From sequence record OR525701.1: a stretch of DNA of 64,000 bases; one strand, given 5' to 3'. The notes below the pieces were generated by a model. It saw only the letters and a program-made list of their open reading frames with translations, was not told the DNA's origin and did not search any database. This DNA is from Escherichia phage vB-Eco-KMB38. A program made the position numbers and the translations under genes. This document shows, one piece after another, positions 1 to 42,430 of the stretch (position 1 is its first letter; each line of letters begins with the position of its first letter).

Positions 1-292
1 GAGTACGTCTTCAAATGGTGGGGCATAACCGTTCTTACAAATTTCTTCTACTCTAGCATCAGAATGGTGTGTAAAAGCATTCATCAGGGATAGATAAGGT
101 CCGGTTAAAAATGTTCTCATTTAGTTTCTCTTAAGGTTGGGGCCGTTCCGTGGCACATGTTAGGTCCTTCGACTCGCTATGTAAACCCATTACCGCATTG
201 CGCTCGACCTTATTACAGGTTGGAAAAGGTACATCACTCAGAGGACTCGACGTTCATGAGGAGAGGTTGCGTTTCCCTTTATTAGGCAAGAA

Positions 293-622
293 TTATACTC
301 TAGGCTTTTGAGCTTGTTTGGTATTGGATTCCCATGCAGCTTTGGTAATTTTGTTAGCGGCATAACCAAAGGCATTAGATAGAACACCTTTAGAGTTGAA
401 TACATCCAATCCAATAAGTACACCGGCTGTGTTAAATTTAGGAGCAAAGTACGCATTAGTTTTAGAAAGAGCTTTTTTCAATTCAGGGTCTTGAACCAAA
501 CCATCAAAAACGCCTTTACTATTTACTTTATATGTTACTTTGGGATTTTTACCTTCTTCGATAGCAGCTTTCTGTTCCGCAGATAATGTAACTTCAGTGA
601 TAAACTCTTGATACGTTTTCAT
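293..622 (-). CDS. Internal protein (Ip-type) with N-terminal capsid-targeting sequence
   Basis: N-terminus MKTYQEFITE matches the T4 IPI/IPII/IPIII capsid-targeting sequence (MKTYQEFIAE, cleaved by prohead protease after E); RBS AGGAAC upstream. Confidence 0.65.
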   Translation of the reverse strand: MKTYQEFITEVTLSAEQKAAIEEGKNPKVTYKVNSKGVFDGLVQDPELKKALSKTNAYFAPKFNTAGVLIGLDVFNSKGVLSNAFGYAANKITKAAWESNTKQAQKPRV

Positions 623-647
623 TTTGTTCCTATTGTTTTAATTTATG

Positions 648-962
648 TTATTCTTTAGGGAAGTTTTTAGAGTATGCATCATAAAGTTTATTACCAATAC
701 GACGGAAGACTTTAGCTGCAAAACGGTTTTCAGGGTTTTTAATCATGATTTGCATCATGTAAGTTCCTGCATCCGAAAGAGCTTCTTCATAGTACCCATT
801 AATTTCTTTAAGAGTCCTACGTTTACCGCCAGGACCATCAACAGTAATTTTCCATTTACCTGTAGAAGTGCGGCTCGGTGGTTCAACTTGTTCAATCCAA
901 ATATAACCGCCTTCAACGCGTTGGTTGGCGGATTCTGCAATAAATTCTTTATACGTTTTCAT
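648..962 (-). CDS. Internal protein (Ip-type) with capsid-targeting sequence
   Basis: N-terminus MKTYKEFIAE; preceded by a strong sigma70-like early promoter. Confidence 0.65.
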   Translation of the reverse strand: MKTYKEFIAESANQRVEGGYIWIEQVEPPSRTSTGKWKITVDGPGGKRRTLKEINGYYEEALSDAGTYMMQIMIKNPENRFAAKVFRRIGNKLYDAYSKNFPKE

Positions 963-983
963 TTTTGTTTCCTTGTTTGTTTT

Positions 984-1023
984 GATAGAGCAATTATACC
1001 ATATTAATACTTAAGCGTAAACC
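984..1023 (-). promoter_or_regulatory. T4-type early promoter (GTTTAC -35, TATAAT -10) for Ip gene 648..962
   Basis: Minus-strand sense GGTTTACGCTTAAGTATTAATATGGTATAATTGCTCTATCAA, then AAGGAAAC RBS and ATG. Confidence 0.6.
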
Positions 1024-1025
1024 GT

Positions 1026-1286
1026 TTAAGCTTTACCGCCAGAAATAATTCCGAAGTTGTTAAAATCATATCCAATATCGCCAACGTCTACTTTAGGGCT
1101 TGCTACAACATAAGCAATTTCACTACGTTTTGCATAGGTGTTGATTTCTTTACCATCGCCACCTAAGAAAGAATATCCATTACGTTTTAACGAGCCAAAG
1201 TCTTCCGCATCACCAATGAAAGCTTTAACTTTAAATTTAGGACCTTTGGCATCTGCTTCAAAGATAAATTCTTGATACATTTTCAT
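1026..1286 (-). CDS. Internal protein (Ip-type) with capsid-targeting sequence
   Basis: N-terminus MKMYQEFIFE; Gly-rich small protein. Confidence 0.55.
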   Translation of the reverse strand: MKMYQEFIFEADAKGPKFKVKAFIGDAEDFGSLKRNGYSFLGGDGKEINTYAKRSEIAYVVASPKVDVGDIGYDFNNFGIISGGKA

Positions 1287-1292
1287 TTTTCC

Positions 1293-1706
1293 TTAGTAAA
1301 TTGATTTACCATAGTATTTGTACCAAGTCGGACGTTGAGCAATTTTTTCATCTAAGCGTGCTTGACTTATCGCAATGGACGCTTCGGACGGGACATAATT
1401 ATTACGAAATTCGGCAGGTATGTCGGAAATATCCTGGACCGTCGTGTCCTTTATTTTGAAACCGCGTTTCAAACATTCAGCGATTAGCTCGATTTGACGT
1501 AAACGTAAAAATTCGAGTTTGTCGTAAAAGAATGTTACGTGACCTGTGCCTAAGATAAATGTTGGAGAGATTTTAAAATCCTTTACACGTTTACCATTTT
1601 GGACATGTTTACGGACTGCACCAAATACGCGTGGTAATTCACGATACTCAGCCATAAGATGTTGGTCGGTCAGTTCAGAAACAAGTGTTAAATTGATACG
1701 AGTCAT
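1293..1706 (-). CDS. denV: Endonuclease V, pyrimidine-dimer DNA glycosylase/AP lyase
   Basis: Sequence from [29 protein letters not shown] closely matches T4 DenV; start placed at internal Met (ORF track starts 12 nt upstream at 1718). Confidence 0.9.
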
Positions 1707-1764
1707 AATTTCCTCCAAGTAGTTGATGAATGTATAGTATCAAAACCCTTGGAGGAAGTAAACA

Positions 1765-2046
1765 CTATTTTTCTGAAGCGCCTGAAATATATTTTTCAAG
1801 ACGTTGTTTCATCAGCGAGCCGTTCTTAGCGATTTCTTCCGGTTTATCGCACATACGCAACAAGGCTTCAAGCTTAACGATATCACTGGTGCGCTCAAAT
1901 TTGCGAGTATCTATCTTACTAGCAAGTTCAGAAATACGTGCTAATAGACTTTCAGCTTCAACCAAAGCTGCACCTAGCTTAGTTGCAAATGTGTCAGTAG
2001 CTTCGTTAAGAATAGATTCTGATAAAAATTCACTATATGTTTTCAT
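1765..2046 (-). CDS. Internal protein (Ip-type) with capsid-targeting sequence
   Basis: Internal start gives [10 protein letters not shown]; ATG overlaps the lysozyme stop (ATGA); ORF-track start at 2061 is a TTG. Confidence 0.6.
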
Positions 2047-2531
2047 ATATACGCTTTCCAAGTTCCTGTTTTAAATGTTGATATTACGCGTTTCGCGCGA
2101 TTGGGTGTCTGACGATACCATTTAGATTGGGCTAGATTTACTGCCGCTTCGTCCCAACGTTTCTGTTGAAGCATACGAAGAGAATTAGTAAAACCGGCGA
2201 CGCCTGCTACACCCATTTGGAAGACCATATTGACCAATGCACAACGACGAACCGCATCTAAAGAATCGTATACCGGTTTAAGTTTAGCATTACCCAAGAT
2301 TCCGCGAACGGCTTTATCAACGTCTTCATTAAATAGCTTTTCAGCCTCATCAAGGGTAATTGGACCGTTGCATTTACGGCCGATCATTCTGTCAAGTTCA
2401 GCTTTAGCTACGGCTAAAGATGGGTTCTTTGTTACTAAATGGCCTATGCCAATCGTCCAAAAGCCTTCAGTGTCTTTGTATAAAGTCAGTCTAAGACCTT
2501 CGTCATTACGAAGCATTTCAAATATATTCAT
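2043..2531 (-). CDS. e: Lysozyme (endolysin, T4 e)
   Basis: [32 protein letters not shown]... near-identical in pattern to T4 lysozyme; GGAGG RBS directly upstream of the MNIFEML start. Confidence 0.95.
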
Positions 2532-2565
2532 AATACCTCCCACGTTTATAGGAGGTATTTATTAC

Positions 2566-3024
2566 TTATAGGAGGGTAGTGAGCACCTTATATAATGATT
2601 TGCCCATTACATATTCCCATTGAGAAGGTTTAATTAAAGCGAATGCATCAAATTCAGGAATCTGACGTCCGTCCGGGAATGTATGATAGGAATTACAAAC
2701 ACTATTTCTGAATTGCTCGTGCTCTACAGGGATGGTATATAGGAACAGGTGAATATTCTTATTGTCTGAGTAATGATGTTCACCTAGGTCTTTCAGGAAG
2801 GCAGGGTCATATTGTGTAAACCCAGTTTCTTCTTCGCATTCACGAATAGCGGCTTCGATAGGAGATTCGCCGGGCTCGACACGACCTTTAGGAATATCCC
2901 ACCGATGAGCTAAAGAACCTTTAGGACGAGAACCAGTTACACGCCCCATGAATAATTCTTTATCTTCGGTAAGGAAAATAATACCAGCTGATAGTTCTTT
3001 CACTTTATTTTTCTTACTCATCAT
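2566..3024 (-). CDS. nudE: Nudix hydrolase
   Basis: Nudix box GRVEPGESPIEAAIRECEEETG; position immediately upstream of e as in T4 (e.1); start uncertain by 1-5 codons. Confidence 0.85.
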   Translation of the reverse strand: MMSKKNKVKELSAGIIFLTEDKELFMGRVTGSRPKGSLAHRWDIPKGRVEPGESPIEAAIRECEEETGFTQYDPAFLKDLGEHHYSDNKNIHLFLYTIPVEHEQFRNSVCNSYHTFPDGRQIPEFDAFALIKPSQWEYVMGKSLYKVLTTLL

Positions 3025-3512
3025 CTCAAATTCCTGCATTCAGTAATAAAACGTTCAACTTCATTATTCTTGGCCTTTATCTTGGCTTTATGTTCTTGTA
3101 AACTACTTTTAATAAGATTAATAATGATGGCGGCGGTACCGCCGCCAATGATGCCACCAACACCACTTATGATACTAGATGCTAATAAGATAGCAATAAT
3201 ATCAACAAAACCGAAAGAACTCACCTTAGTACTGAAAAACCATATAGACGGTGCAAATATAATCCATCCTGTTATCCATTGACACTTATTGAAAAACTTT
3301 TCAAGCTCAGCTTGAGTTGTTCGTATTACTTCATCGATAGGTTGATATCCATTAATGTATCTGTTCACGATAATACCTGCTGGCTGGTCGATTTTAAATG
3401 CTTGACAATGGCGTTTCACTAAGTATGATGGACATCCTGTCCAATCTATAGAATAATATGAAATACCTTCGTCGCCATCGTCCATGTTTGTCCAGTGAAT
3501 TTTATGTATCAT
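3021..3512 (-). CDS. Hypothetical membrane protein (C-terminal TM segment, tail ERFITECRNLR)
   Basis: ORF with hydrophobic stretch IIAILLASSIISGVGGIIGGGTAAIII; no recognised homologue. Confidence 0.5.
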   Translation of the reverse strand: MIHKIHWTNMDDGDEGISYYSIDWTGCPSYLVKRHCQAFKIDQPAGIIVNRYINGYQPIDEVIRTTQAELEKFFNKCQWITGWIIFAPSIWFFSTKVSSFGFVDIIAILLASSIISGVGGIIGGGTAAIIINLIKSSLQEHKAKIKAKNNEVERFITECRNLR

Positions 3513-4198
3513 TACCAGCCTTCCATAGGGAATTCCAGATAAACTTGGGCGTTGACACGAATTTCATTGGTAATCTTTTTAACTCGGTCTGTATTACGAG
3601 ATACACGTCCGAACCAACGCCATCCATTACTAATTGCACGAGAACCAGTGTGCCATGTTTGCCAATCAAACTGAAGAAGAGTACGATCTGGAGCTTCCCA
3701 TTTCTCTAGTTCGCCTTTTTCGATTTTTTCGAGGACTTCTTTGTGCCACTGGCGATAGATAAGTTCGCCATCAGGAATCTGACTGAACTCTGCAGTTCCT
3801 GTTGCAAAATGAGTAGGACACACATCAGCGTTAACAAGACCAAGAATATGTTCAGAATGGTAACGAGGGTTGTCATAATCAGGTTGTCCTGCAGTAATAA
3901 AGTGTTGACCTACCGGAATATCAGGGCGTGGTACATCGTCATGGTGATAACCTGGGATAGCAGGGTACCAACCAGGCATCAGCATGTGGACTCGTGAATC
4001 AAATACAACCTGGTCGGTGTTCCAATCATCAGGCAAGTTCATGATGAAGCTGCGAGTAATAGGACCGCCGTTATTATAAGCAAATTCTAAACTACAGTTA
4101 AAGAACATAGGCTCGTTCTTGATTTTATCATTAGAAATACCGCCGGCAAAACCACCTACTGCACGAGCTTGACTATTAAACACTTTAGAACTATTCAT
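3512..4198 (-). CDS. Hypothetical protein (228 aa)
   Basis: Long uninterrupted ORF; start codon adjacent to stop of upstream gene; function not recognised. Confidence 0.55.
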   Translation of the reverse strand: MNSSKVFNSQARAVGGFAGGISNDKIKNEPMFFNCSLEFAYNNGGPITRSFIMNLPDDWNTDQVVFDSRVHMLMPGWYPAIPGYHHDDVPRPDIPVGQHFITAGQPDYDNPRYHSEHILGLVNADVCPTHFATGTAEFSQIPDGELIYRQWHKEVLEKIEKGELEKWEAPDRTLLQFDWQTWHTGSRAISNGWRWFGRVSRNTDRVKKITNEIRVNAQVYLEFPMEGW

Positions 4199-4199
4199 A

Positions 4200-4505
4200 T
4201 TATTTTCCTCGACATTCTTTAATGAAATTTTCTAGATTGGTAGATTCAATAGCTTTTTTACGAGCTTCTGCGTGTTCTTCTTCAGACAATTTACGTTTAT
4301 AATTGACCCAGACATTATGGTCGAAACCAGTCGTGGCATATAATATCAATGCTCCAACGAATAGCAAAAACGGCGATAAGAATACAAAACCAGGAACACC
4401 ATCCATATCGTAAGCCTTTTGTAATACTGCAACAGAAAGAGCTACGTAAAAAGGTGATGCAAGTATTGTTAAAAGACCAATTCGGTTGGTTTCTGTTAAT
4501 TTCAT
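4200..4505 (-). CDS. Hypothetical small membrane protein
   Basis: Two hydrophobic helices; GAGGAG RBS; C-terminal ENFIKECRGK; downstream of PeSL promoter. Confidence 0.55.
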   Translation of the reverse strand: MKLTETNRIGLLTILASPFYVALSVAVLQKAYDMDGVPGFVFLSPFLLFVGALILYATTGFDHNVWVNYKRKLSEEEHAEARKKAIESTNLENFIKECRGK

Positions 4506-4520
4506 AATATTCTCCTCAAG

Positions 4521-4562
4521 TTGATAGGACTACTATAACATAGTCCTATAATTGTGTAAACA
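4521..4562 (-). promoter_or_regulatory. PeSL-type early promoter cassette (GTTTAC -35, extended -10 TGTTATAGT inside 10-bp inverted repeat)
   Basis: Plus strand gataggactactataacatagtcctataattgtgtaaac; near-identical copies at 5816 and 12439. Confidence 0.6.
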
Positions 4563-4573
4563 GTTTTGTGAAG

Positions 4574-5530
4574 TTATTTGAAAGGTTTTACCATATGGAA
4601 ATTTTGTTTGAAACGTTTGACGTAATCGTCATGTCCTAAGCGTTGGTACATACTTACAACTTTGCTGTAGTTTTCCCAGGCGTATTCACGGAACCAACCG
4701 GAGGTGATGCTTGTGCAAACTTTTTCTAATGCCATCATGAAACTGGCTTCAGAGTTAATTTCAAAGTTATTAGGAATCTGAGAACGTTCTAATGCTAGTA
4801 CACATGATTCTTCATATACACCGGCCAATTTGACCATTTCTGGTAACGATTCGAACTTCTCGCGTGAGGTCATGACTTCAGAACCATCTTTCATGTAAAA
4901 TGTATAAGCCGGACGGTCTGTTAGTGCAATGGCTTCGTGAATAGTATCATGGTCATATGTGTAGATGTCATCTTTAAAGAATGCGCTTTTAGAAGTGTCA
5001 AGAATCGGGTGAGCATAGTTCAAGGTTTCTTTCTGGCGTTTCAGCATAATTTCAGTAAGTTCATCGTTCAGTGTAACACCTTTACCACGAAGATACTGGA
5101 TATGGTTCATAGTCTTTAAAAAGAATGGATTATTTTTCTTGAAACGATGAGACATTTTAATTGCAAGACATATCTCAGGAGTTGCCCAGTAAAACCCGGT
5201 CAAACGATCTTTAGTCAAATTTTTCTTGGCGTATTTTAAAAGGTCATAAGAAGACGTGAAATCTTCAGGAGTGAGTTCACCGACTAATTCACGAACATTA
5301 GTGATTGCCGGAACAATATATGCTTCAAAATGAGTTTCGCGTCCATTATGGAAGCATTTGAAAACTTGGACATCAGGGTTATCTTGGTGAACATATACAC
5401 CCATCATTTGATTTTTGAATGCATTCCAAGAACCTTGGTCCGCAATAAAGTCCCAATCGCTATTTTTGATAGCGCTAGAATCAATAAGACCATGATAGTG
5501 AAGTGCACGAGAACCAATAACTAACATCAT
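4574..5530 (-). CDS. Hypothetical protein (318 aa)
   Basis: Long ORF with GAGGAAAATATT RBS; no recognised family. Confidence 0.55.
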   Translation of the reverse strand: MMLVIGSRALHYHGLIDSSAIKNSDWDFIADQGSWNAFKNQMMGVYVHQDNPDVQVFKCFHNGRETHFEAYIVPAITNVRELVGELTPEDFTSSYDLLKYAKKNLTKDRLTGFYWATPEICLAIKMSHRFKKNNPFFLKTMNHIQYLRGKGVTLNDELTEIMLKRQKETLNYAHPILDTSKSAFFKDDIYTYDHDTIHEAIALTDRPAYTFYMKDGSEVMTSREKFESLPEMVKLAGVYEESCVLALERSQIPNNFEINSEASFMMALEKVCTSITSGWFREYAWENYSKVVSMYQRLGHDDYVKRFKQNFHMVKPFK

Positions 5531-5558
5531 AATATTTTCCTCGGATTAATTCATCAAC

Positions 5559-5810
5559 TTAAATTTCACGACATGCGATATTATATTCATCCCATAGGTC
5601 ATCATGTGAAGCCTCTACCAATGGAACGATTGTACCGTTTATGTCTTCATTATAAGGGCAAATTGTACAGTGCGCATCTTCGAATCGGATGCCTTTGTGT
5701 TCAGATTTTTTATAACGCATATCGAATAACTTTGCAAACTTTTCACGAGTAATAGTTTTAGCAACTACTTCGGTTCCAATACTTTCGTAATAAATCATTG
5801 TGGACTCCAT
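5559..5810 (-). CDS. Hypothetical small protein with Cys/His cluster
   Basis: 83 aa, HCTICPYNEDING...H suggests possible metal binding; PeSL promoter directly upstream. Confidence 0.5.
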   Translation of the reverse strand: MESTMIYYESIGTEVVAKTITREKFAKLFDMRYKKSEHKGIRFEDAHCTICPYNEDINGTIVPLVEASHDDLWDEYNIACREI

Positions 5811-5815
5811 TTAAT

Positions 5816-5857
5816 TTGATAGGACTACTATAACATAGCCCTATCTTGTTGTAAACT
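5816..5857 (-). promoter_or_regulatory. PeSL-type early promoter cassette
   Basis: gataggactactataacatagccctatcttgttgtaaac, repeat of the element at 4521. Confidence 0.6.
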
Positions 5858-5860
5858 GTT

Positions 5861-6058
5861 TTAGCAAGAATAACTAGACGATACCCAGCCTTGAACAGTA
5901 ATGCTATTATTAGATAATGAGATTGCGTTCTGGAGATTCAGACCTGCGTTATCTTCAATCCATAATGTAACTTCTTCGCGTTCTTCTGTTGCAATTTGGA
6001 ACAGGTTTTCCAGGGCAGCTACTGCCGTACGTACAGCACAATCTAATTCACGAGACAT
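5861..6058 (-). CDS. Small protein, paralogue family member (ends GWVSSSYSC)
   Basis: 65 aa; shares C-terminal W-x-S-S-S-x-x-C motif with the next two genes. Confidence 0.5.
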   Translation of the reverse strand: MSRELDCAVRTAVAALENLFQIATEEREEVTLWIEDNAGLNLQNAISLSNNSITVQGWVSSSYSC

Positions 6059-6067
6059 ATGGTTTCC

Positions 6068-6340
6068 TTAGCAAGTGTGAGAAGATGCGATCCAACCACC
6101 AGTTTCGAGGCTCAGGTTGTAGTCGTATTGGTAAACGTCAGCCCATTCAGCATAGCCGTTTTTTGTACAACGTTCAAGATCGGCTTTAAGCTGTCCGGGT
6201 GAATGATATGTTCCACCCATACCATAAGCTGGATACAAGTCGAATGTTGTGTTTTGTTTATCAGCAATTTCTTTGGCAGCCTCAATAGCTGCATAGATTT
6301 TTGCTACAGCTTCAGCCAGTTCGGTTTGTTCTTTAGACAT
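6068..6340 (-). CDS. Small protein, paralogue family member (ends GGWIASSHTC)
   Basis: 90 aa; N-terminus MSKEQ; conserved C-terminal motif followed by TAAGGAA RBS of next gene. Confidence 0.5.
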   Translation of the reverse strand: MSKEQTELAEAVAKIYAAIEAAKEIADKQNTTFDLYPAYGMGGTYHSPGQLKADLERCTKNGYAEWADVYQYDYNLSLETGGWIASSHTC

Positions 6341-6349
6341 AATGATTCC

Positions 6350-6655
6350 TTAGCACAACGCAGAAGACGAAACCCAAGCACCTTCAGTAATAACGTAACC
6401 ATTACCTTCACGCTTAACATCGCCACCATTATTTTCAATTTCATCTTTCATCCACTGGGATACGATTTCACCCTTAGGATAATAAGTACGACCGCTACCA
6501 TAATCACCTACAGAAAATGATACAGAATATTGGTCTGCGATCTTTGTTGCTTCTTCTTCGATACGTTCAGCTTGATTCAGAAGTTTATAAATTGCATCTG
6601 AAGCGGATTTGGCATCATTAAACTCTGGTACTTTAATTTCAATAATCTTACTCAT
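6350..6655 (-). CDS. Small protein, paralogue family member (ends GAWVSSSALC)
   Basis: 101 aa; N-terminus MSKI; same C-terminal motif. Confidence 0.5.
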   Translation of the reverse strand: MSKIIEIKVPEFNDAKSASDAIYKLLNQAERIEEEATKIADQYSVSFSVGDYGSGRTYYPKGEIVSQWMKDEIENNGGDVKREGNGYVITEGAWVSSSALC

Positions 6656-7011
6656 TTTCTACATTCCTTAATAAAGTTTTCTATTGTTTCATTTTCACGT
6701 CTAGCTAGGAGTTCATTATAACTAATCATTTGAGAAGCGTAAACCTTTTTATTTTTCTTGTTATGGTTTATAAAATCGTAGTAAAAATAGACTACAGTAC
6801 AAAAGGATGCGATGGATGCAAAGGCTTGGGTATACCGTAAGTCCTGCCATTGGTCTGTGAATCCACCAGTGTTCCCTATAAATCCTAACACAACGCCGTC
6901 AATAAGAAATCCAACTAATCCAAAGGCAAATCCCATGCCAATACTCATAATAAAAATTAGAATGTTCTCACCAAGAGAAGGCCATACGGTTAAGAGTTGA
7001 GGTTTTTGCAT
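6652..7011 (-). CDS. Hypothetical membrane protein
   Basis: Hydrophobic segments; AAGGAAAT RBS; C-terminal IENFIKECRK. Confidence 0.55.
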   Translation of the reverse strand: MQKPQLLTVWPSLGENILIFIMSIGMGFAFGLVGFLIDGVVLGFIGNTGGFTDQWQDLRYTQAFASIASFCTVVYFYYDFINHNKKNKKVYASQMISYNELLARRENETIENFIKECRK

Positions 7012-7385
7012 CTTATTTCCTTAACGAATTCCATAGCTTCTTCATATTCATACTTTTTAACAGCTTCATCATACTGAGCTTGGGCTTTTGCGCACTGAAC
7101 TTTCCACTCGCGAACTCGAGCTCTGTGATGACGGCCTTGGTGCCAATATCCTGCCCAATTAATAGGCATTAATAAAAACGGTACAATAAGTGGTGCGACG
7201 AACATTAATGAAAACGCTGCATCAGACGATATAACTTTATTGGAATCTAAAATAGCTCCTATAATCATAAAGATTAAAAATGCTAAAGCTAAAATAGGGC
7301 CAAATAGTACTTCGTTTGGGATTAATTTACGTTTGTATTCGTATGCCCATGGCTTAATTGGCATGTACAGGGTTGGCTTTGACAT
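6990..7385 (-). CDS. Hypothetical membrane protein
   Basis: ORF-track start at 7415 is TTG; first ATG gives MSKPTLYMPIK; two hydrophobic helices; C-terminal EFVKEIRCK. Confidence 0.5.
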   Translation of the reverse strand: MSKPTLYMPIKPWAYEYKRKLIPNEVLFGPILALAFLIFMIIGAILDSNKVISSDAAFSLMFVAPLIVPFLLMPINWAGYWHQGRHHRARVREWKVQCAKAQAQYDEAVKKYEYEEAMEFVKEIRCKNLNS

Positions 7386-7977
7386 ATTCTCTACATTCCA
7401 TAATAAATTGCTCAAGGATTAAATTGTTAGTGAAATTAGGACTAACAACCATAGTTTCATAAAGCGCATCAATAGCACTTAAAGCATCAACTCTTTTAAG
7501 CAAAGGCTTGCCTTCATACATAGTTTCAGAATCGACGATTAACGTAAAGTAATATTTTTTATTATCGACTAGAACTTCTGTGTCGATATAAAACATATTA
7601 GACCTCAGAAGCTTATCTCTAAAACCATAATAATCTTCTGAACGTTCGCTGATATATTCCCATTCAGTGTTTAAACAACAAACAGACCACGTAGGAGCAA
7701 CGAAATCAGTGAATCTAATATCATGGTCTGCAACTAGTTTAGCAATAGCTCCGATATCATGAATCATAATACCTGGGGCTAATAAAGATTTTCTGCTATG
7801 GCTAGCCGTTTTCTCAGTGGTCTCATAAGAAGCTGACCAGTACCATTTACGTCCGGTTGCAACATATCGTAATGAATCAACTAAAGACGTAGGTGGATTT
7901 ACCTTATCTCGGAACTCTTCGAACATCGAGTCAATATCATTATTTTGGTTTCGCATGTTAACTCCTTTATCATCCAA
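7354..7977 (-). CDS. Hypothetical protein (207 aa)
   Basis: ORF with C-terminal EQFIMECREY motif overlapping next gene start. Confidence 0.5.
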   Translation of the reverse strand: MDDKGVNMRNQNNDIDSMFEEFRDKVNPPTSLVDSLRYVATGRKWYWSASYETTEKTASHSRKSLLAPGIMIHDIGAIAKLVADHDIRFTDFVAPTWSVCCLNTEWEYISERSEDYYGFRDKLLRSNMFYIDTEVLVDNKKYYFTLIVDSETMYEGKPLLKRVDALSAIDALYETMVVSPNFTNNLILEQFIMECREYVKANPVHAN

Positions 7978-8005
7978 AAGGAGGACCGGAGTCCTCCGTA
8001 TTATT

Positions 8006-8599
8006 TTATTTCAAAGAGTTAATATATTCTTGTACATCAGCAGAAGTGGTTTCGACACCGGCTGGAGTACCATTGAACGTTTCAACACGAGTCAGAGTGT
8101 CTTCGATATCAACCTTAGTCAGTGCAGCGATTTCAATTACATCATCGGCCGTAGAGATACCAAGGGCATTGGCTGCTCGAGTTTCACGAATGTATTCGAG
8201 TTTGATTGCCAGATTCTGACGAGCATCATCAAGTTCAACCACCTTACGAGCAATTTCAATTCGCATAGCGGCATACCCGTCGGCTTTTGTATTAAGTTGT
8301 TCGGCAGTTCGACGATACAGAAGACCAAGCTTAGCATGCATGGTAACATCTTGTCCTTCGGCCAAGAGCTTACGAATTTCACGTTCCTTAGAAGCGGCTT
8401 GTTTATTCTTTTCAATAACAAGTTCGCGAATACGTTTTTCTTCATTAATAGATTTAACAGAAGCCGTTTTTAGTTCTTTGATTTGGGTAATCAACTTATC
8501 TGCAGCTGCGTTATACTGTTCTTCGACAGTCAGATTTTTAGCCATAGCAGTACCCAGTTTAGTGCGGATGAATTCAACAAGTTTCTTCAGTGTGTTCAT
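8006..8599 (-). CDS. Coiled-coil protein, possibly PspA/IM30-like
   Basis: Start at MNTLKK after AAAGG RBS (ORF-track start is 5 codons upstream); heptad-rich, charge-alternating sequence resembling PspA architecture; assignment is inference. Confidence 0.45.
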
Positions 8600-8669
8600 A
8601 TTATTACCTTTCAATTGGTGGTTTATTATCCAATGAGAGCATTATACTCTGCTCTCAAGAGTTTGTAAA

Positions 8670-8897
8670 TTATTTTTTAATCAAATTGACATAAAACTTG
8701 GCGTCTTCCGGGTGCATGCCTTCACAGTATTCTTCAACCATGAACTTCTTAACAGCTTCATAAGGACCACTCAGATTAAGCTCAGTTGTCCAGAACTTGG
8801 AATCTTGGGCTGAATCGATACGAACTTCAGGGTGACGGTTGCGAATAACTTCTTCGGTATATTCATAATCAACGACATCAATACTAACTTTAGCCAT
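8670..8897 (-). CDS. Hypothetical small protein (75 aa)
   Basis: ORF with AGAGGAAAAC RBS downstream of an early promoter. Confidence 0.5.
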   Translation of the reverse strand: MAKVSIDVVDYEYTEEVIRNRHPEVRIDSAQDSKFWTTELNLSGPYEAVKKFMVEEYCEGMHPEDAKFYVNLIKK

Positions 8898-8914
8898 TTT
8901 GTTTTCCTCTTGAT

Positions 8915-8958
8915 TTGATGTGATTACTATAACATAAACTTACTTAGATGTAAATTAT
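8915..8958 (-). promoter_or_regulatory. Early promoter (ATTTAC -35, TGTTATAGT extended -10)
   Basis: Minus-strand sense AATTTACATCTAAGTAAGTTTATGTTATAGTAATCACATCAA. Confidence 0.45.
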
Positions 8959-9108
8959 TTCAACGTCACCTTTAGCGGCTTTATAACCTTCAGCCCAAGA
9001 TACAACAGAGTTTTTATCTGAGGATTCAAATTCAGGCATTGGACTTTCACCGATATTCACACAGTATGTTTCTTCATTTTCATCGAACCAAATAATTAAA
9101 GTAGTCAT
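8945..9108 (-). CDS. Hypothetical small protein (~54 aa, below ORF-track cut-off)
   Basis: MTTLIIWFDENEETYCVNIGESPMPEF... preceded by GAGGAGTAAACAAA RBS and a promoter; coordinates approximate. Confidence 0.35.
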
Positions 9109-9168
9109 TTTGTTTACTCCTCTGTAGTTGATAAGTCTATAGTATCACCATCCTTGGTGCTTGTACAT
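9107..9168 (-). promoter_or_regulatory. Early promoter cassette; 44-bp copy also present at 45181-45224
   Basis: tcattttgtttactcctctgtagttgataagtctatagtatcac repeated near-exactly at 45181. Confidence 0.5.
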
Positions 9169-9176
9169 CGTTATTT

Positions 9177-9482
9177 TTAATTTTTCCAACTTAACAACTT
9201 GTAGTGTCCTTCATTCGTACGAGGTTTATCCCAAGAAATACTAATATATGATTCGCTATCAATAGAAGTCGCCGGGTTTTTCTCTACCGTAAGACCTTCA
9301 CTTTCCAGCCATTCAATAGTATTTGCGCATAAATCAGAAGAACACCTCATCGGGAACCGGCAAGATTTTTCACCTTTAGCTGCAGTGTTATACATCTTTT
9401 CTAGAATACGCTTTTGCACGTTTTTAAAAATAGTTTCAGCAGATTCTTCAGATTTTTTATTCAGTTCAGTATAAAGACTCAT
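9177..9482 (-). CDS. Hypothetical protein (101 aa)
   Basis: ORF with GAGGAAAATG RBS downstream of early promoter. Confidence 0.5.
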   Translation of the reverse strand: MSLYTELNKKSEESAETIFKNVQKRILEKMYNTAAKGEKSCRFPMRCSSDLCANTIEWLESEGLTVEKNPATSIDSESYISISWDKPRTNEGHYKLLSWKN

Positions 9483-9499
9483 AACATTTTCCTCTGCGG

Positions 9500-9540
9500 T
9501 TGATAAGTCTATAGTATCATGTCCTTAGAAGAAGTAAACA
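9500..9540 (-). promoter_or_regulatory. Early promoter (GTTTAC -35, TGATACTAT extended -10)
   Basis: Minus-strand sense GTTTACTTCTTCTAAGGACATGATACTATAGACTTATCAAC. Confidence 0.55.
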
Positions 9541-9570
9541 TCTTTATGAAATATTTTTATGCCCTAGATA

Positions 9571-9599
9571 CCAAAAAGCCCCAACCGTAAGGAAGGGGC
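9571..9599 (-). terminator. Rho-independent terminator (GCCCC...GGGGC hairpin plus U-run on minus strand)
   Basis: gccccaaccgtaaggaaggggc preceded on plus strand by aaaaa; lies just 3' of Ip gene 9606..10070. Confidence 0.55.
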
Positions 9600-9605
9600 A
9601 TTCTA

Positions 9606-10070
9606 TTATTTAATTTGTTTAGCAGACCAGATACGGTCTTTAATAAGTTTTTGGATATCTTCAACATACTCAAGGCTATGAGCGTGAGGATTATCTTTGA
9701 AACTATGTGCTCGTGCCAGTTTCTGGCCTTCTGTTTTGATTACTAAAAGCTCTTTAAGAATTGCTTCATACTTAGAAATAATTCCTTTGGCGATATTTTT
9801 TTCTTGAGCTGTTTTAGGGTCCGCTTTTGGCGCAGGTGCTTTACCTGTAGCTTTCTGGAACAATTCACCTGATGCAGCTAGGCTTTTAAAAACTCGGCTA
9901 ACAGTATTAGCATTAGTAAAACCTTCGGCTTTAAAATCTCTAATAAAACGGAAACGTTCTTCATCGGAGGCGTCTTTGTAAGAATATTTACCTGCTTGAA
10001 TTGCTGCAATCGCAGCGGCTTTTACATCTGAACTAGATTGTTCAGTCAAAAATTCAGCGTATGATTTCAT
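9606..10070 (-). CDS. Internal protein (Ip-type) with capsid-targeting sequence
   Basis: N-terminus MKSYAEFLTE; 154 aa. Confidence 0.55.
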   Translation of the reverse strand: MKSYAEFLTEQSSSDVKAAAIAAIQAGKYSYKDASDEERFRFIRDFKAEGFTNANTVSRVFKSLAASGELFQKATGKAPAPKADPKTAQEKNIAKGIISKYEAILKELLVIKTEGQKLARAHSFKDNPHAHSLEYVEDIQKLIKDRIWSAKQIK

Positions 10071-10113
10071 GTTGCTTTTCCTAAGTTAATTAACTTATCT
10101 ATTTATTATTATA

Positions 10114-10142
10114 CCAAAAAGCCCCAACCTTTCGGAAGGGGC
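10114..10142 (-). terminator. Rho-independent terminator
   Basis: gccccaacctttcggaaggggc with U-run on minus strand; near-copy of hairpin at 9578. Confidence 0.55.
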
Positions 10143-10194
10143 TAAGCCTTGCGGCAACCTTGTCGGGGTTCCACCTGCTAAGGCAAGTGTTTGT

Positions 10195-10286
10195 ACGAAA
10201 CGCCGGGATTCGAACCCGGTTATTAAGTAGTTGACGCTACTCAATATTTTTAAAAGGCCATATCTCGACCATATCCGAACGTTCCG
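10195..10286 (-). ncRNA. tRNA-like structured RNA (canonical T-arm and acceptor pairing, aberrant D/anticodon region)
   Basis: Minus-sense CCGGGTTCGAATCCCGG T-arm; 5' CGGAACG pairs with 3' CGTTTCG; interior does not fold as a standard cloverleaf. Confidence 0.3.
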
Positions 10287-10456
10287 TCAAAAACGCTACT
10301 CGGCTTACGGCAAAGATATTTCCTCGAATCGATAATTCTGTGCGCCGTTTCTGCTGTGAGATAAGGGACTTTAAGATGTCAACTCATGTACGCCTTAAAG
10401 TCGGGTCTTATTCAGGGAACATCAGTCCGACGACTTGCCGGTAGCGACCCGGCTTC

Positions 10457-10801
10457 TTATTTTGGCATATCATCAATTTGCTCTCGACGCCGACGCCATA
10501 GATTAATCGCTTCATTAACACATTCGGCGTTTGGTATATGACGGCAATAATATAATGATTCACGTTTCTGGAACCGATGTTGCAACGGGATTTCGTTTAA
10601 AAGGTCTTTACGGTCAAAGTATTCAAAACTAGTTAACCCAGAACGGTTTTTAATGAACTTCCAATGTCCAAATTCATTTTGAACATAGATGTAATCGGCA
10701 TGCTGATACAGCGAATTAATCAATCGATGAGAAATAACTGTATCATATTCGTTAAAATAAAACGTTAAATCATGAACTACCAGATAAACATTGCCTTTCA
10801 T
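10457..10801 (-). CDS. Hypothetical protein
   Basis: ORF-track start at 10849 would overlap tRNA-Arg; internal Met MKGNVYLVVHDL chosen. Confidence 0.45.
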   Translation of the reverse strand: MKGNVYLVVHDLTFYFNEYDTVISHRLINSLYQHADYIYVQNEFGHWKFIKNRSGLTSFEYFDRKDLLNEIPLQHRFQKRESLYYCRHIPNAECVNEAINLWRRRREQIDDMPK

Positions 10802-10819
10802 ATTTTCCTCACTTAAAGT

Positions 10820-10896
<77 letters not shown>

Positions 10897-10902
10897 AATA
10901 TA

Positions 10903-10976
10903 TGACCCAGACCAGATTCGAACTGGTAACCTTTCCCTTATGAGGGGACTGCTGCTAACCGTTGAGCTACAGGGCC
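10903..10976 (-). tRNA. tRNA with CAU anticodon (Ile2/Met type)
   Basis: Minus sense GGCCCTG...GTCCC-CTCATAA-GGGAA...ACCAG-TTCGAAT-CTGGT-CTGGGTC-A; adjacent to tRNA-Arg as in the T4 Ile-Arg pair. Confidence 0.65.
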
Positions 10977-11038
10977 TAAATAACTTTCTATTATGAAAGG
11001 CACTTTAGAGCACCTTTGGTAATAGATGGTATGAATTA

Positions 11039-11065
11039 ATAATAACACATAATTCTTAAAGCAAA
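11039..11065 (-). promoter_or_regulatory. Candidate MotA-dependent middle promoter upstream of the tRNA genes
   Basis: Minus sense TTTGCTTTA (MotA-box-like) followed 12 nt later by TATTAT. Confidence 0.4.
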
Positions 11066-11571
11066 TCAATCATTTTAACAGTTGGCAAAACGATTTCTTC
11101 TTCAATATAAGCAAATTCAACACATTCAACTACACGCAAGAAATCATAATCATAATATTCAGAAGCATGACCAAGAATACCAACGAGACCTTCTGATACT
11201 AAATATCCATTCTCACGGAACAGGTCGAATACACGCGATTCGTCTTCTTCAGATTTATTACCAAGGTCGACTTCAATATCAAAGACCTTTTTAATGAATT
11301 CTGGATAAAGCTGGTCTGAGAACAGTCCTTCAACCAAGTATTCGTAGATTAAAAGCGAGCAATCACTGAATGGTGTATTACCACAGTAACGTTCAGCTTT
11401 AGTGCTGGAATGACGACTCTTAAATTTCTTCAAAAGATATTTAAACTGTTGGAGCTCATGCTCTTCCACTTCAAACAATGTTTTGGTTTTATAGTTGTCA
11501 CCATCATTTTCATAAGTAGTGACATCAATTACGTAACCCTTAGGAATTGTACTGCCTAAACAAATATTCAT
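11056..11571 (-). CDS. Hypothetical protein (171 aa)
   Basis: ORF; acidic; no recognised family. Confidence 0.5.
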   Translation of the reverse strand: MNICLGSTIPKGYVIDVTTYENDGDNYKTKTLFEVEEHELQQFKYLLKKFKSRHSSTKAERYCGNTPFSDCSLLIYEYLVEGLFSDQLYPEFIKKVFDIEVDLGNKSEEDESRVFDLFRENGYLVSEGLVGILGHASEYYDYDFLRVVECVEFAYIEEEIVLPTVKMIDLL

Positions 11572-11575
11572 TTAC

Positions 11576-11866
11576 TCACCGTACCATATTAATGTAATTA
11601 TATTCAATGCAACGTAATTTCAAAGGATTCTTGAAAATATCATATTCAAGAGGGCCTTTTTCTGTTTCAATAAAGAAATCAAAGTTAACTGTGTTAAATT
11701 TATCATCTTCACAGAGTAATTTAACTTGCGAAGATGAACGGTCGATATAAACCTTTTCAACCTCAAAGTTAGTCAGAATACCATAGTCATTAACTAGTGC
11801 TTTAGCTGCACGTTGATCGCTTTCATATCCATTCTCGACAGATTTTACTTTAGCATAAAGAATCAT
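11576..11866 (-). CDS. Hypothetical protein (96 aa)
   Basis: ORF with start overlapping the upstream stop. Confidence 0.5.
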   Translation of the reverse strand: MILYAKVKSVENGYESDQRAAKALVNDYGILTNFEVEKVYIDRSSSQVKLLCEDDKFNTVNFDFFIETEKGPLEYDIFKNPLKLRCIEYNYINMVR

Positions 11867-12225
11867 GAGTGTTCCACCACTTCAAAGGTATGAGCATCAA
11901 CAATATGATACCAGTCAAAATTTTCTTCTGCGTTTTTATAAATTTCGCGAAGAGCCTCAACAGTTTTTCCTGTAGCAACAAGGTCGTCAATACCGCCAAG
12001 AGGATAACAGTCATATCCAGCAAACAGAAGGAAATTAATAGTTTCTGTAGGTTCTGGATGCAGAACACCGTTATCGTCTACCACTTCAAAGAAAGTGTAA
12101 GAAGGAGTACAAGTTTTAATCCAAGCCCATGCTTGAGCTGCTGAATCAAATGGTCTGCGTATCAAACGACAATCAGGGTCTTTAGAAGGATTTGCTTCAA
12201 AATCTGCATATACATGATATTTCAT
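11863..12225 (-). CDS. Hypothetical protein (120 aa)
   Basis: ORF; tight packing with neighbours. Confidence 0.5.
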   Translation of the reverse strand: MKYHVYADFEANPSKDPDCRLIRRPFDSAAQAWAWIKTCTPSYTFFEVVDDNGVLHPEPTETINFLLFAGYDCYPLGGIDDLVATGKTVEALREIYKNAEENFDWYHIVDAHTFEVVEHS

Positions 12226-12432
12226 TTACTCACCTTTTGCAATTTTATCCATAACAATAGCGATTAAACCGATTAGAAATGCTACTACCAATGAGATAGA
12301 ATTTTCTGTTGTTGTCAGTAGTCCACAAATGAATCCTACAAACATCGAAAAACTAAAGGCCATTGAAGCAATTACTACAGCAACATTACGAATCAGTTCA
12401 GCGCGTTTCATTTTATTTCTCCATTTACTCAT
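12226..12432 (-). CDS. Hypothetical small membrane protein
   Basis: 68 aa with two hydrophobic helices; PeSL promoter upstream. Confidence 0.5.
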   Translation of the reverse strand: MSKWRNKMKRAELIRNVAVVIASMAFSFSMFVGFICGLLTTTENSISLVVAFLIGLIAIVMDKIAKGE

Positions 12433-12438
12433 TTGTTT

Positions 12439-12478
12439 TGATAGGACTACTATAACATAGTCCTATCGTGTTGTAAAC
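12439..12478 (-). promoter_or_regulatory. PeSL-type early promoter cassette
   Basis: gataggactactataacatagtcctatcgtgttgtaaac, third copy of the 4521 element. Confidence 0.6.
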
Positions 12479-12481
12479 TAC

Positions 12482-12769
12482 TTACAGAAGAGTTTTTGCA
12501 ATAATTTTAAGCTGAGCTACAGAAATATGCTTAGCTTTAAACAGTGCAGTCTCTTCAGCCGGAGAGATAACAATAGTAGCGCCATCTTTCTTAGCAGACC
12601 ATCCATCCCCTAAGTAAACAGTACCTTTTACTTCTTCACCATCAACCAGACTAATCATTGGTTTACCCTCACGTCCTTTATTTGTTTTAATAACTTCAGA
12701 AGTAAGGGATGCTTCGGTCAGAGTAGAAACGTTAGCAACAGGTGATATAAATTCTTTATAGGTTTTCAT
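12482..12769 (-). CDS. Internal protein (Ip-type), at the ipI position upstream of 57B
   Basis: N-terminus MKTYKEFIS...TLTE; 95 aa; synteny with T4 ipI. Confidence 0.6.
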   Translation of the reverse strand: MKTYKEFISPVANVSTLTEASLTSEVIKTNKGREGKPMISLVDGEEVKGTVYLGDGWSAKKDGATIVISPAEETALFKAKHISVAQLKIIAKTLL

Positions 12770-12793
12770 TTTATTTCCTTGAGGCTGTTTATT

Positions 12794-12833
12794 TGATAGG
12801 ATGATAGTAACACACCATCATCCTTATGTAAAC
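12794..12833 (-). promoter_or_regulatory. PeSL-type early promoter cassette (variant)
   Basis: Minus-strand sense GTTTACATAAGGATGATGGTGTGTTACTATCATCCTATCAA with GGATGAT/ATCATCC inverted repeat. Confidence 0.55.
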
Positions 12834-12846
12834 TGTTTTGTGAAAA

Positions 12847-13532
<686 letters not shown>

Positions 13533-41364: not shown

Positions 41365-41789
41365 TGTATCTTATCCCTGAATCTTATGAATTGGTACTCG
41401 AAAATGTCGAAGCACTTATTCCTGAAGCACAGGGCCGAATCGATGCATTGTCTTCTGCTCTCGATATTGACGATATAAATACTATTATCGAGAACATGCT
41501 TGAAACTGAAACGGATTTAGCTGTTGCAATGGCTTCCATTATTAATGAAGAACAGTTAAATGAGTTTATCGTTAAACATGTTTCTTCTCGTGGTGAAGTC
41601 ACCCGCACTAAAGACCGTAAAACTCGCGAACGTAACGCGTTCCAAACCACTGGTCTTTCTAAAGCAAAACGTAGACAAATCGCTCGTAAGGTCGTTAAAG
41701 CTAAAAAAGCTAACCCTTCAGGCCAAGTTAAAGGCTTGCGTAAGCGTAAAAAGGCTCTTAAACGTCGTAAAGCATTAGGATTAAGCTAA
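41364..41789 (+). CDS. 68: Prohead core protein gp68
   Basis: 141 aa, basic C-terminus. Confidence 0.8.
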
Positions 41790-42430
41790 TGAATAAACCC
41801 GAGTTACTTATTGAAACTTGGGGTCAACCCGGTGAGATTATTGATGGCGTTCCAATGTTGGAATCTCATGATGGAAAAGATTCTGGCTTAAAACCAGGGC
41901 TTTATATAGAAGGTATTTTTCTTCAGGCAGAGGTTGTTAACCGAAATAAACGTTTATATCCTAAACGCGTTTTGGAAAAAGCAGTAAGTGACTATATTAA
42001 AGAACAAGTCGCAACCAAACAAGCCCTTGGAGAATTAAACCATCCACCTCGTGCAAATGTTGACCCTATGCAAGCCGCTATCATTATTGAAGATATGTGG
42101 TGGAAAGGAAACGATGTATATGGACGTGCTAGAATTATTGAAGGCGACCATGGTCCCGGCGATAAATTAGCTGCTAATATACGAGCTGGCTGGATTCCAG
42201 GTGTTTCCTCTCGTGGTCTTGGTTCTTTAACCGACACCAATAAAGGGTACCGTATCGTGAACGAAGGATTTAAATTAACCGTCGGCGTAGATGCCGTATG
42301 GGGACCTTCTGCTCCAGATGCTTGGGTTACTCCTAAACAAATATCAGAATCAGAAAATTCGGTGGAAACCACCAAAAACAGTGCTGATGAAGCATTTAAA
42401 GCTCTCGCAGAGAGTTTAAAAGCATTATAA
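41789..42430 (+). CDS. 21: Prohead core protease
   Basis: 213 aa; synteny. Confidence 0.9.
   Translation: MNKPELLIETWGQPGEIIDGVPMLESHDGKDSGLKPGLYIEGIFLQAEVVNRNKRLYPKRVLEKAVSDYIKEQVATKQALGELNHPPRANVDPMQAAIIIEDMWWKGNDVYGRARIIEGDHGPGDKLAANIRAGWIPGVSSRGLGSLTDTNKGYRIVNEGFKLTVGVDAVWGPSAPDAWVTPKQISESENSVETTKNSADEAFKALAESLKAL

Follow-up and report, generated by a model that had tools for sequence, protein, structure and literature searches.

Four internal protein genes with T4-type capsid-targeting sequences between e and vs.8 in an RB69-like Mosigvirus: candidate injected anti-restriction proteins

T-even phages carry two loci for internal proteins (Ips), one extending from e to vs.8 and the other from the tRNA region to 57B, and the diverse proteins with a capsid-targeting sequence (CTS) encoded at the two loci have already been described as an anti-restriction effector set (PMC3012670, PMC9026906, PMC12373910). 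In T4 ten residues of IPIII are enough for packaging, and residues 4 and 7 of the CTS are important (PMC9026906). Ip1, Ip2 and Ip3 of T4 each inhibit a distinct GmrSD enzyme (PMC12373910): IPI* (Ip1) inhibits GmrS/GmrD of CT596, IPII and IPIII inhibit the GmrSD enzymes of ECOR21 and ECOR17, respectively, and IPIII is required on ECOR17 (PMC9391042). RB69 and Mosigvirus NP are both restricted by GmrSD-family enzymes (PMC6024577, PMC13390438). Outside the T-even phages, the DarA, DarB and Hdf proteins of P1 are likewise packaged in the head, injected with the DNA and protective against restriction. The Dar proteins of P1 are large, belong to an unrelated phage, are incorporated by another pathway and act against type I restriction.

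The DNA analysed here (the window) is a stretch of 64,000 nucleotides from Escherichia phage vB-Eco-KMB38 (OR525701.1), an RB69-like Mosigvirus with 100% identity to phage EP02SG and 97.7% to RB69. Four ORFs occupy exactly positions 293-622, 648-962, 1026-1286 and 1765-2046 on the minus strand, and all lie in the polymorphic e to vs.8 locus, the T4 counterpart of which holds ipIII and ipII. The upstream boundary of the locus is the lysozyme gene e (2043-2531, minus strand; Pfam Phage_lysozyme, E 1e-13; positioned as in T4), and the 5' end of vs.8 lies at 1-84 on the same strand (RB69 annotation transferred at 97.7% identity). The cluster thus terminates within the window, and an earlier note on this DNA was mistaken in supposing that it might continue past the window start, positions 85-292 being non-coding. 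Lying within the locus as a landmark, and itself no Ip gene, is denV, which encodes the pyrimidine-dimer glycosylase endonuclease V (1293-1706, minus strand; Pfam Pyr_excise, E 3e-14; PHROG 1183, E 1.5e-62). The gene order is therefore e-Ip-denV-Ip-Ip-Ip, compared with e-ipIII-ipII-denV in T4, and synteny of the e-vs.8 locus extends over T4, RB69, PP01, SP18, WG01, STP4-a, ime09, JS09, fGh-Ecl04 and Kosakonia phage 305. The cluster had been called expanded, which is apt in relation to T4, with two Ip genes at this locus, but not in relation to other genera, which have three or four there. Both the kind of locus and its position have already been catalogued, as have most of its genes, and it is an ordinary RB69-like feature rather than a new system. 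At the second Ip locus, adjoining 57B, there is an ipI homologue (12482-12769, minus strand; PHROG 4363, E 2e-47) with 86% identity to T4 IPI over 95 aa.

A conserved non-coding element (121-292, minus strand) borders the locus on its downstream side, a short way upstream of vs.8. It is 78 - 97% identical across genera, has an invariant core of about 40 nt and was found in 920 phage records, essentially as a single copy per record. The gap in which it lies (85-292) was judged non-coding because the genera differ in it by indels of 1 nt and 5 nt. A structured RNA was also considered and rejected, there being no Rfam match, no sign of covariation and a fold less stable than those of shuffled sequences (z +2.47), as was a remnant of denV, of which a similarity search found no trace.

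All four products begin MK(T/M)Y.EF(I/L).E, including the key residues Tyr4 and Phe7, the individual N-termini being MKTYQEFITE for 293-622, MKTYKEFIAE for 648-962 and MKMYQEFIFE for 1026-1286, and residues 8-10 of each, as read from the sequence, form the gp21-type motif (I/L)-x-E (ITE, IAE, IFE and, for 1765-2046, LSE). In a six-frame translation of the window the pattern MK.Y.EF..E occurs five times and on each occasion opens an ORF on the minus strand, whereas residue frequencies predict about 0.0003 chance matches and 200 shuffles produced none. The ORFs, the N-termini and the motif scan together bear out the earlier note's description of four adjacent minus-strand genes with a T4-type CTS, and on these features the four can be regarded as genuine CTS-bearing members of the T4-type Ip family. 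The scan also located a sixth CTS gene (9606-10070, minus strand), the product of which has 154 aa, starts MKSYAEFLTE and belongs to PHROG 2280 (E 2e-53), a family without assigned function.

The best documented of the four is the gene at 648-962, encoding 104 aa with its CTS at 933-962 and a mature part of 94 aa (pI 9.6). Over its full length the product is 96% identical to Ip10 of PP01 and 72% to that of SP18, VR20 and VR25 (E 1e-60 to 2e-44), and by this similarity it can be identified as Ip10. Notes in the records lead back to the phage Pol protein of that name (CAA84455), named in 1994, and the name is used in the annotation of PP01, SP18, VR20, VR25 and JS09; the product here shares the locus of those proteins and there is no material difference. 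The ip10 gene was found in 189 phage records, and its orthologues in Karamvirus and Kanagawavirus (52 - 58% identity) lack the last 7 residues. An AlphaFold2 model of Ip10 with a pLDDT of 84.8 predicts the topology beta-beta-beta-alpha-beta-beta.

The gene at 1765-2046 (RB69ORF127c type) encodes 93 aa, with its CTS at 2017-2046. Its start has to be taken as the ATG at 2046, which runs into the stop codon of e in the overlap ATGA. Its product is assigned to PHROG 3499, 'internal head protein' (E 1e-46), and carries the same label in RefSeq for RB69; the gene occurs in 496 phage records. The mature part, of 83 aa, has a pI of 6.3 and so, unlike that of T4 IPII and IPIII, is not basic. The 1765-2046 product is 47 - 51% identical to the ip5 products of PP01 and T2 across 84 aa (E 1e-15 to 2e-17) and has the CTS and a similar length in common with Ip5 of T2, PP01 and other Tequatrovirus, but ip5 is situated at the other Ip locus, adjoining 57B, whereas the present gene lies between e and denV. 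It would therefore appear to represent a distinct subfamily related to Ip5 and not the same gene.

The product of the gene at 1026-1286 (RB69ORF125c type; 86 aa, CTS encoded at 1257-1286, mature part 76 aa with pI 8.2) also falls in a PHROG named 'internal head protein' (2667, E 6e-20), and RefSeq applies that label to proteins of this type in RB69, SP18 and STP4-a. It is 65 - 73% identical to its counterparts in Gaprivervirus and Gelderlandvirus, and the gene type was found in 217 phage records, many of its alleles in the protein database being truncated or frameshifted; an AlphaFold2 model based on 6 sequences was unusable (pLDDT 40). The gene at 293-622 (RB69ORF123c type) encodes 109 aa, with its CTS at 593-622 and a mature part of 99 aa (pI 9.7). 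Its type occurs in 90 phage records, in all 90 of which the product is annotated 'hypothetical protein' and in none as an Ip; annotation as an Ip is warranted. The product was without a match in Pfam, NCBIfam or the PDB, and a search of 1.8 billion representatives yielded only two clusters at 50% identity, the second being a 119-aa Dhakavirus-type protein with 39% identity. A literature search by name found no paper on RB69ORF123c-127c.

Beyond the CTS the proteins have little in common. It had been claimed that the mature parts are unrelated both to one another and to T4 IPI, IPII and IPIII, and BLASTP and PHROG comparisons agree: pairwise BLASTP of the four proteins and the three T4 Ips after residue 10 gave a best E of about 0.1 (in a tiny database), the T4 proteins belong to PHROGs 4363 (IPI), 7857 (IPII) and 5341 (IPIII) and the four, in order of coordinate, to 3966, 3966, 2667 and 3499, and PHROG cross-matches of the four to T4 Ip families were confined to the first 13 - 30 residues. 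PHROG 3966 matches the products of both 293-622 and 648-962 over their full length, but paralogy of these two was rejected because hhalign of the mature-domain alignments gave a probability of 0.2% and an exhaustive phmmer search from the 293-622 product failed to retrieve Ip10. Word-indexed searches for homologues had very little depth, each giving 2 - 3 matches, and a mixed two-family alignment used as the query retrieved 21 proteins. Searches of the mature domains against Pfam, NCBIfam and PDB sequences gave nothing above noise, and for none of the domains was there a match to a housekeeping family, which the earlier note would have taken as counting against it, or to a known fold. In comparison with the T4 proteins, IPI has a propeptide of 19 residues, as against 10 in the four proteins, and a dissimilar mature domain, whilst IPII and IPIII share with them the e-vs.8 locus and a near-identical CTS (MKTYQEFIAE), a basic mature protein being matched in two of the four and the PHROG families differing.

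Purifying selection acts on all four genes. The dN/dS values, 0.11 - 0.42 for 293-622, 0.04 - 0.28 for ip10 and 0.14 - 0.18 for 1026-1286, span 0.04 - 0.42 across the four, from which it follows that the genes are real and constrained. The locus as a whole is nevertheless highly variable. The Ip-locus regions compared from 10 phages of 7 genera contain no fewer than 14 CTS families without relationship to one another, nearly all located between e and vs.8, and the uneven occurrence of the genes and their decayed alleles mark them as dispensable and variable among related phages. In JS09, for example, the ORF123c type is replaced by IpII and ORF125c is truncated, and the RB69 reference, across 63.4-65.3 kb, has lesions in three of these four Ip genes, alleles which, to judge from their sequences, look damaged. 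The gene at 1765-2046 shares 97.9% DNA identity with Tequatrovirus ime09, as against 81% for the flanking e and 75% for denV, and ip10 shares 90.6% with PP01, against 77%. These differences indicate that Ip genes are exchanged between phage genera as cassettes.

It is probable that the four genes encode accessory Ips of an RB69-like T-even phage that are packaged, injected and directed against restriction enzymes of the GmrSD/BrxU type, the precedent of T4 being the guide to packaging, cleavage, injection and anti-restriction function alike. Each protein would be synthesized with the ten-residue N-terminal CTS, which would steer it to the scaffolding core that gp22 forms in the nascent prohead, where the gp21 prohead protease would cleave after Glu10 of the I/L-x-E motif. 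Cleavage there would give the mature N-termini VTLSAEQK, SANQRVEGG, ADAKGPK and SILNEATD, in order of coordinate, and a second cut might follow IEE (residues 21-23) in the 293-622 protein and LNE (residues 13-15) in that of 1765-2046. The window encodes both gp21, the prohead core serine protease (41789-42430, plus strand; Pfam Peptidase_S77, E 2.8e-107), and gp22, the scaffolding core protein (42464-43276, plus strand; Pfam T4_CASP, E 2e-89), and also contains portal and capsid genes. The mature protein of 76 - 99 residues would remain inside the capsid alongside the DNA and be injected when the next cell is infected. Most likely it would there inhibit a single, specific first-line nuclease in a stoichiometric manner, and the leading candidates for the target are type IV restriction enzymes of the GmrSD/BrxU type that attack the sugar-modified cytosines of these phages. 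In these respects the four proteins would resemble T4 IPI*, likewise a small, non-essential product of an Ip locus with a targeting peptide removed by gp21. Several points weigh against this reading: a literature search turned up neither virion proteomics nor N-terminal mapping from any Mosigvirus, an exact late-promoter box is absent from the minus strand around the cluster, genes called ip4-10 gave no reproducible GmrSD inhibition and the ORF127c-type mature protein is not basic. The earlier note had proposed candidate new injected anti-defence effectors; candidates they are, by analogy with T4, but new they are not, since all but the ORF123c type are already named or labelled, as Ip10, as a relative of Ip5 that RefSeq calls 'internal head protein' and as the ORF125c type with the same RefSeq label.

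An important consideration is whether the CTS in these genes specifies packaging at all, for the N-terminus might be merely a module for recombination and translation start joined to early, cytoplasmic proteins that never enter the head. The 30 - 54 nt that encode the CTS do cross-match at 83 - 93% between otherwise unrelated cassettes, the exact late-promoter box TATAAATA is absent from the minus strand of positions 1-13,000, including the cluster (one-mismatch copies occur at 2556-2570, upstream of e), a candidate sigma-70-like promoter (993-1021, minus strand; TTTACG, 17 nt, TG-TATAAT) lies upstream of ip10, its match to the consensus (10/12) being the top-scoring site in 1-2700, and IPIII lacking its CTS is still functional when supplied in the host. 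Conservation is, however, at the level of the peptide, which stays constant, protease site included, through synonymous codon differences (ACG/ACA, GAG/GAA, ATC/ATT), the cognate protease and scaffold are encoded in the window, and those ten residues suffice for packaging in T4, so that proteins of an unpackaged kind are very hard to credit. It is somewhat less improbable, but still very unlikely, that the proteins are generic DNA-binding occupants of the head that neutralize charge and aid packaging or ejection and have no specific host target. In T4 some 1000 molecules of internal protein fill each head, their lysines in contact with the DNA (PMC3012670), and the mature products of 293-622 and 648-962 are basic (pI 9.6 - 9.7) like T4 IPII and IPIII. 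Such a function leaves unexplained why a single locus should harbour 14 or more unrelated families, the exchange of cassettes and the frequent losses, and is at odds with the target specificity of the T4 Ips and the pI of the ORF127c-type protein.

A more serious alternative, although an unlikely one, accepts packaging and injection and holds that at least some of the proteins inhibit defences other than GmrSD, such as other nucleases or sensors acting at DNA entry. Assays of ip4-10 with T2, T4 and T6 that covered 15 GmrSD groups showed no reproducible inhibition (PMC12373910); the ip5 and ip10 constructs of that study may differ in sequence from the genes here. The four mature domains are mutually unrelated, one being acidic to neutral, and a structural neighbour search with the Ip10 model, including PDB chains and IPI*, found no significant neighbour. 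On the other hand, the T4 Ips for which targets are known, three in number, are all directed at GmrSD enzymes, and both Ip loci have been argued to be devoted to the GmrSD family (PMC12373910), the diversity of which far exceeds the set assayed, and the assays were made with glucosylated T-even phages and not with an arabinosylated Mosigvirus. GmrSD/BrxU-type enzymes remain the preferred targets. It may tentatively be suggested, as a conjecture with the odds clearly against it, that at least one of the four proteins inhibits either a non-GmrSD defence or a type IV enzyme for the arabinosylated 5-hydroxycytosine DNA of Mosigvirus, and, separately, that the 170-nt element at 121-292 and the 30 nt encoding the CTS are two recombination anchors for swaps of Ip cassettes across genera. 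The likeliest candidates for such an inhibitor would be the unnamed ORF123c type, found in Mosigvirus and Dhakavirus only, and the non-basic ORF127c type, and if either were to act in this way it would constitute a new inhibitor-target pair. The confident Ip10 model can now be used for docking to GmrSD families. Injected Ips act ahead of any phage gene expression and so help to decide which wild strains are infectable by a T-even phage, and the Ip repertoire is thus of relevance to the selection and engineering of therapeutic phages.

Translating the 64-kb window in all six frames gives five matches to the capsid-targeting sequence (CTS) motif MK.Y.EF..E, where ~0.0003 would be expected and 200 shuffles gave none, and all five are the first residues of minus-strand ORFs; the earlier observation of four minus-strand ORFs with CTS starts is therefore real and exact. 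On the minus strand, in order of transcription, e (lysozyme, 2043-2531) is followed by a 93-aa ORF (1765-2046), joined to e by an ATGA overlap of its start codon with the e stop codon, by denV (1293-1706) and by ORFs of 86 aa (1026-1286), 104 aa (648-962) and 109 aa (293-622), the last beginning MKTYQEFITE. These four ORFs are the counterparts of RB69ORF127c, 125c, 124c and 123c, respectively. A further 208 nt of non-coding DNA separates them from vs.8, whose first part occupies 84 down to 1 (minus strand), and because vs.8 is directly downstream the cluster stays within the window; the earlier note's suggestion that it may run past the window start is not borne out. The order at the equivalent place in T4 is e-ipIII-ipII-denV-vs.8. 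Over the 2.6-kb region (1-2600), identity is 100% to Escherichia phage EP02SG and 97.7% to RB69 (Mosigvirus); 79 phage records contain at least 80% of this region. In RefSeq RB69, ORF127c and ORF125c are annotated "internal head protein" and ORF124c and ORF123c "hypothetical". The earlier note's view of the four as candidate new injected anti-defence effectors was right in kind but not new. These genes occupy the polymorphic internal protein (Ip) locus already documented in T-even phages: one is Ip10, one a relative of Ip5, one an Ip annotated as such before, and one lacks that annotation.

The 648-962 product is Ip10, with 96% identity to a gene product of Tequatrovirus PP01 annotated "ip10, Ip10 internal head protein", a name traced in record notes to phage Pol Ip10 (CAA84455); identity to Ip10 of SP18, VR20 and VR25 is 72%, and members of Karamvirus and Kanagawavirus that infect Enterobacter, Cronobacter and Kosakonia have orthologues at 52 - 58%. 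A confident AlphaFold2 model from ten sequences (pLDDT 84.8, pTM 0.77) predicts a short helix for the CTS, then a beta-beta-beta-alpha-beta-beta domain. The 1765-2046 product, 100% identical to a Tequatrovirus ime09 gene product, is an Ip5 relative: it shares 47 - 51% identity across 84 residues with the ip5 products of PP01 and T2, although in those phages the gene adjoins 57B, in the other Ip locus, instead of sitting between e and denV. The 1026-1286 gene (ORF125c type) has "internal head protein" orthologues at 65 - 73% identity in SP18 (Gaprivervirus) and in STP4-a and Melville (Gelderlandvirus); its AlphaFold2 model was unusable (pLDDT 40). Only 293-622 has never been annotated as an Ip. 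It is present in 90 records, and among 1.8 billion representative proteins one other true cluster was found, a 119-aa Dhakavirus-type protein with 39% identity that also has a CTS start. The ORF123c-type protein carries NSKGV twice (residues 34-38 and 76-80, ~42 residues apart), which may reflect internal duplication or compositional bias, and gave weak matches to long repetitive proteins in an exhaustive search.

The RB69 reference has lesions in three of these four genes: Ip10 is truncated by a +1 insertion (3691-3963 of the RB69 piece L001 vs window 648-962), the ORF127c CTS is scrambled over residues 5-12, MKTYMNFYQNLS, by paired -1 and +1 changes (L001 4991-5061 vs window 1990-2060), and Glu10 of ORF123c is changed to Ala (L001 3580-3630 vs window 580-630). 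These represent either laboratory-stock decay or old sequencing errors.

The claim that the mature portions are unrelated to one another and to T4 IPI, IPII and IPIII was upheld. When the four proteins, the window's fifth CTS protein and the T4 Ips were compared by BLASTP minus the first ten residues, the best E value was ~0.1. The T4 proteins belong to PHROGs 4363, 7857 and 5341, respectively, the 1026-1286 and 1765-2046 products to 2667 and 3499, and matches across families span the CTS only. The products of 293-622 and 648-962 share PHROG 3966; homology between them was rejected on an hhalign probability of 0.2% for the mature-domain alignments, and Ip10 was not recovered by exhaustive phmmer search with the 293-622 protein. 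Housekeeping identities for the mature domains found no support as far as the check could run, since none of the four proteins had a match in Pfam, NCBIfam or, by sequence, among solved structures.

A survey of every CTS-starting ORF in the Ip-locus regions of ten phages from seven genera, mainly the e-to-vs.8 interval, yielded 34 CTS proteins, which fall into at least 14 families unrelated to one another, with two to four CTS genes per phage at the e-to-vs.8 locus in varying order around denV. Single genes are far closer between genera than their neighbours: the ORF127c-type gene has 97.9% DNA identity to that of ime09 (flanking e 81%, denV 75%) and ip10 90.6% to that of PP01 (e 77%), indicating, from sequence comparison, that Ip genes act as cassettes subject to recent horizontal transfer. 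Cassettes that are otherwise unrelated share short matches of 30-54 nt (83 - 93%) over the ribosome-binding site and the DNA encoding the CTS. Purifying selection acts on all four genes (dN/dS 0.04-0.42), yet decayed alleles of the ORF125c type are common. In Mosigvirus JS09 (4007-5010 of its piece) ORF125c is cut down to 111 nt and the ORF123c slot holds a T4-type ipII, followed by 138 nt from the 5' end of a second denV, the footprint of recombination with a Tequatrovirus-type locus.

Between the last Ip gene and vs.8 lies a non-coding element (121-292, minus-strand orientation), found essentially once per genome in 920 Tevenvirinae records and mostly unannotated; its core of ~40 nt, CCAACCTGTAATAAGGTCGAGCCCAAGTGCGGTAATGGGT in most, does not vary among seven genera. 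Coding sequence is ruled out by 1- and 5-nt indels, and a stable RNA looks unlikely, with no Rfam match, no covariation and a fold z of +2.47; possible roles are regulation of vs.8 or, at the 3' border of the Ip cassettes, the anchoring of recombination. In Salmonella phage STP4-a it is split (4269-4422 and 5301-5458 of that region), the 5' part following an ORF125c-type Ip gene and the 3' part preceding vs.8, with an IPIII-like gene (4660-5220) between them and a ~20-nt stretch, CATGTGCCACGGAACGG, at both ends, so that a cassette looks to have been inserted inside the element. The T4 vs.8 annotation (660 nt) spans the element (2713-2913 of T4 piece L003, the 5' third of the gene); the start in other phages is the conserved internal ATGAGAACATTTTTAAC, giving 495-540 nt, and the T4 annotation probably begins too far upstream.

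The window also encodes portal gp20 (39563-41134), prohead protease gp21 (41789-42430; Peptidase_S77, E ~3e-107), scaffold gp22 (42464-43276), gp23 and gp24. A 695-aa ADP-ribosyltransferase (61315-63402, minus strand; ADPrib_exo_Tox, E 6.5e-28) is probably a homologue of Alt, in T4 another head-packaged, gp21-processed and injected protein. An IPI homologue (12482-12769, minus strand; 86% to T4 IPI) adjoins 57B; in RB69 a further gene, RB69p156 ("internal head protein"; 5284-5501 of piece L013), separates ipI from 57B, and the window lacks it, so that Ip content varies even among members of one genus. A sixth CTS ORF (9606-10070, minus strand; 154 aa, MKSYAEFLTE..., PHROG 2280 "unknown function") is found between e.x genes and tRNA genes, away from both classical Ip loci, and RB69 annotation divides the matching region into two overlapping ORFs, 148c and 149c. 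The tRNA genes there number only two, tRNA-Arg(UCU) and tRNA-Met(CAU) (10820-10976, minus strand); T4 has eight at the corresponding position.

The sequence itself shows the targeting peptide with its I/L-x-E protease motif, genes for the cognate protease and scaffold, and the position in the Ip locus; by analogy with T4 the four Ips would be packaged, cleaved after Glu10 and injected. A literature search found no Mosigvirus virion proteome. Near the cluster there is no exact late-promoter box, one-mismatch copies occurring only upstream of e, and a sigma-70-like consensus match lies upstream of ip10. The first ten residues of IPIII are enough for packaging, residues 4 and 7 mattering for targeting and 8 and 10 for processing (PMC9026906). 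IPI* blocks GmrS/GmrD (PMC3012670), and ECOR17 infection requires IPIII, which, if provided inside the cell, is active even with the CTS removed (PMC9391042). Each of Ip1, Ip2 and Ip3 inhibits a different GmrSD enzyme, without cross-protection, and GmrSD variants have been proposed as targets of all genes in both Ip loci; in that study genes called ip4-10 (matched by name) had no reproducible effect against 15 GmrSD groups, in glucosylated T-even phages (PMC12373910). RB69 and Mosigvirus NP, with DNA containing arabinosylated 5-hydroxycytosine, are restricted by GmrSD-family enzymes (PMC6024577, PMC13390438). Given this restriction and the T4 precedents, the four Ips most likely serve to inhibit type IV restriction, in a strain-specific way, as the DNA enters the cell.
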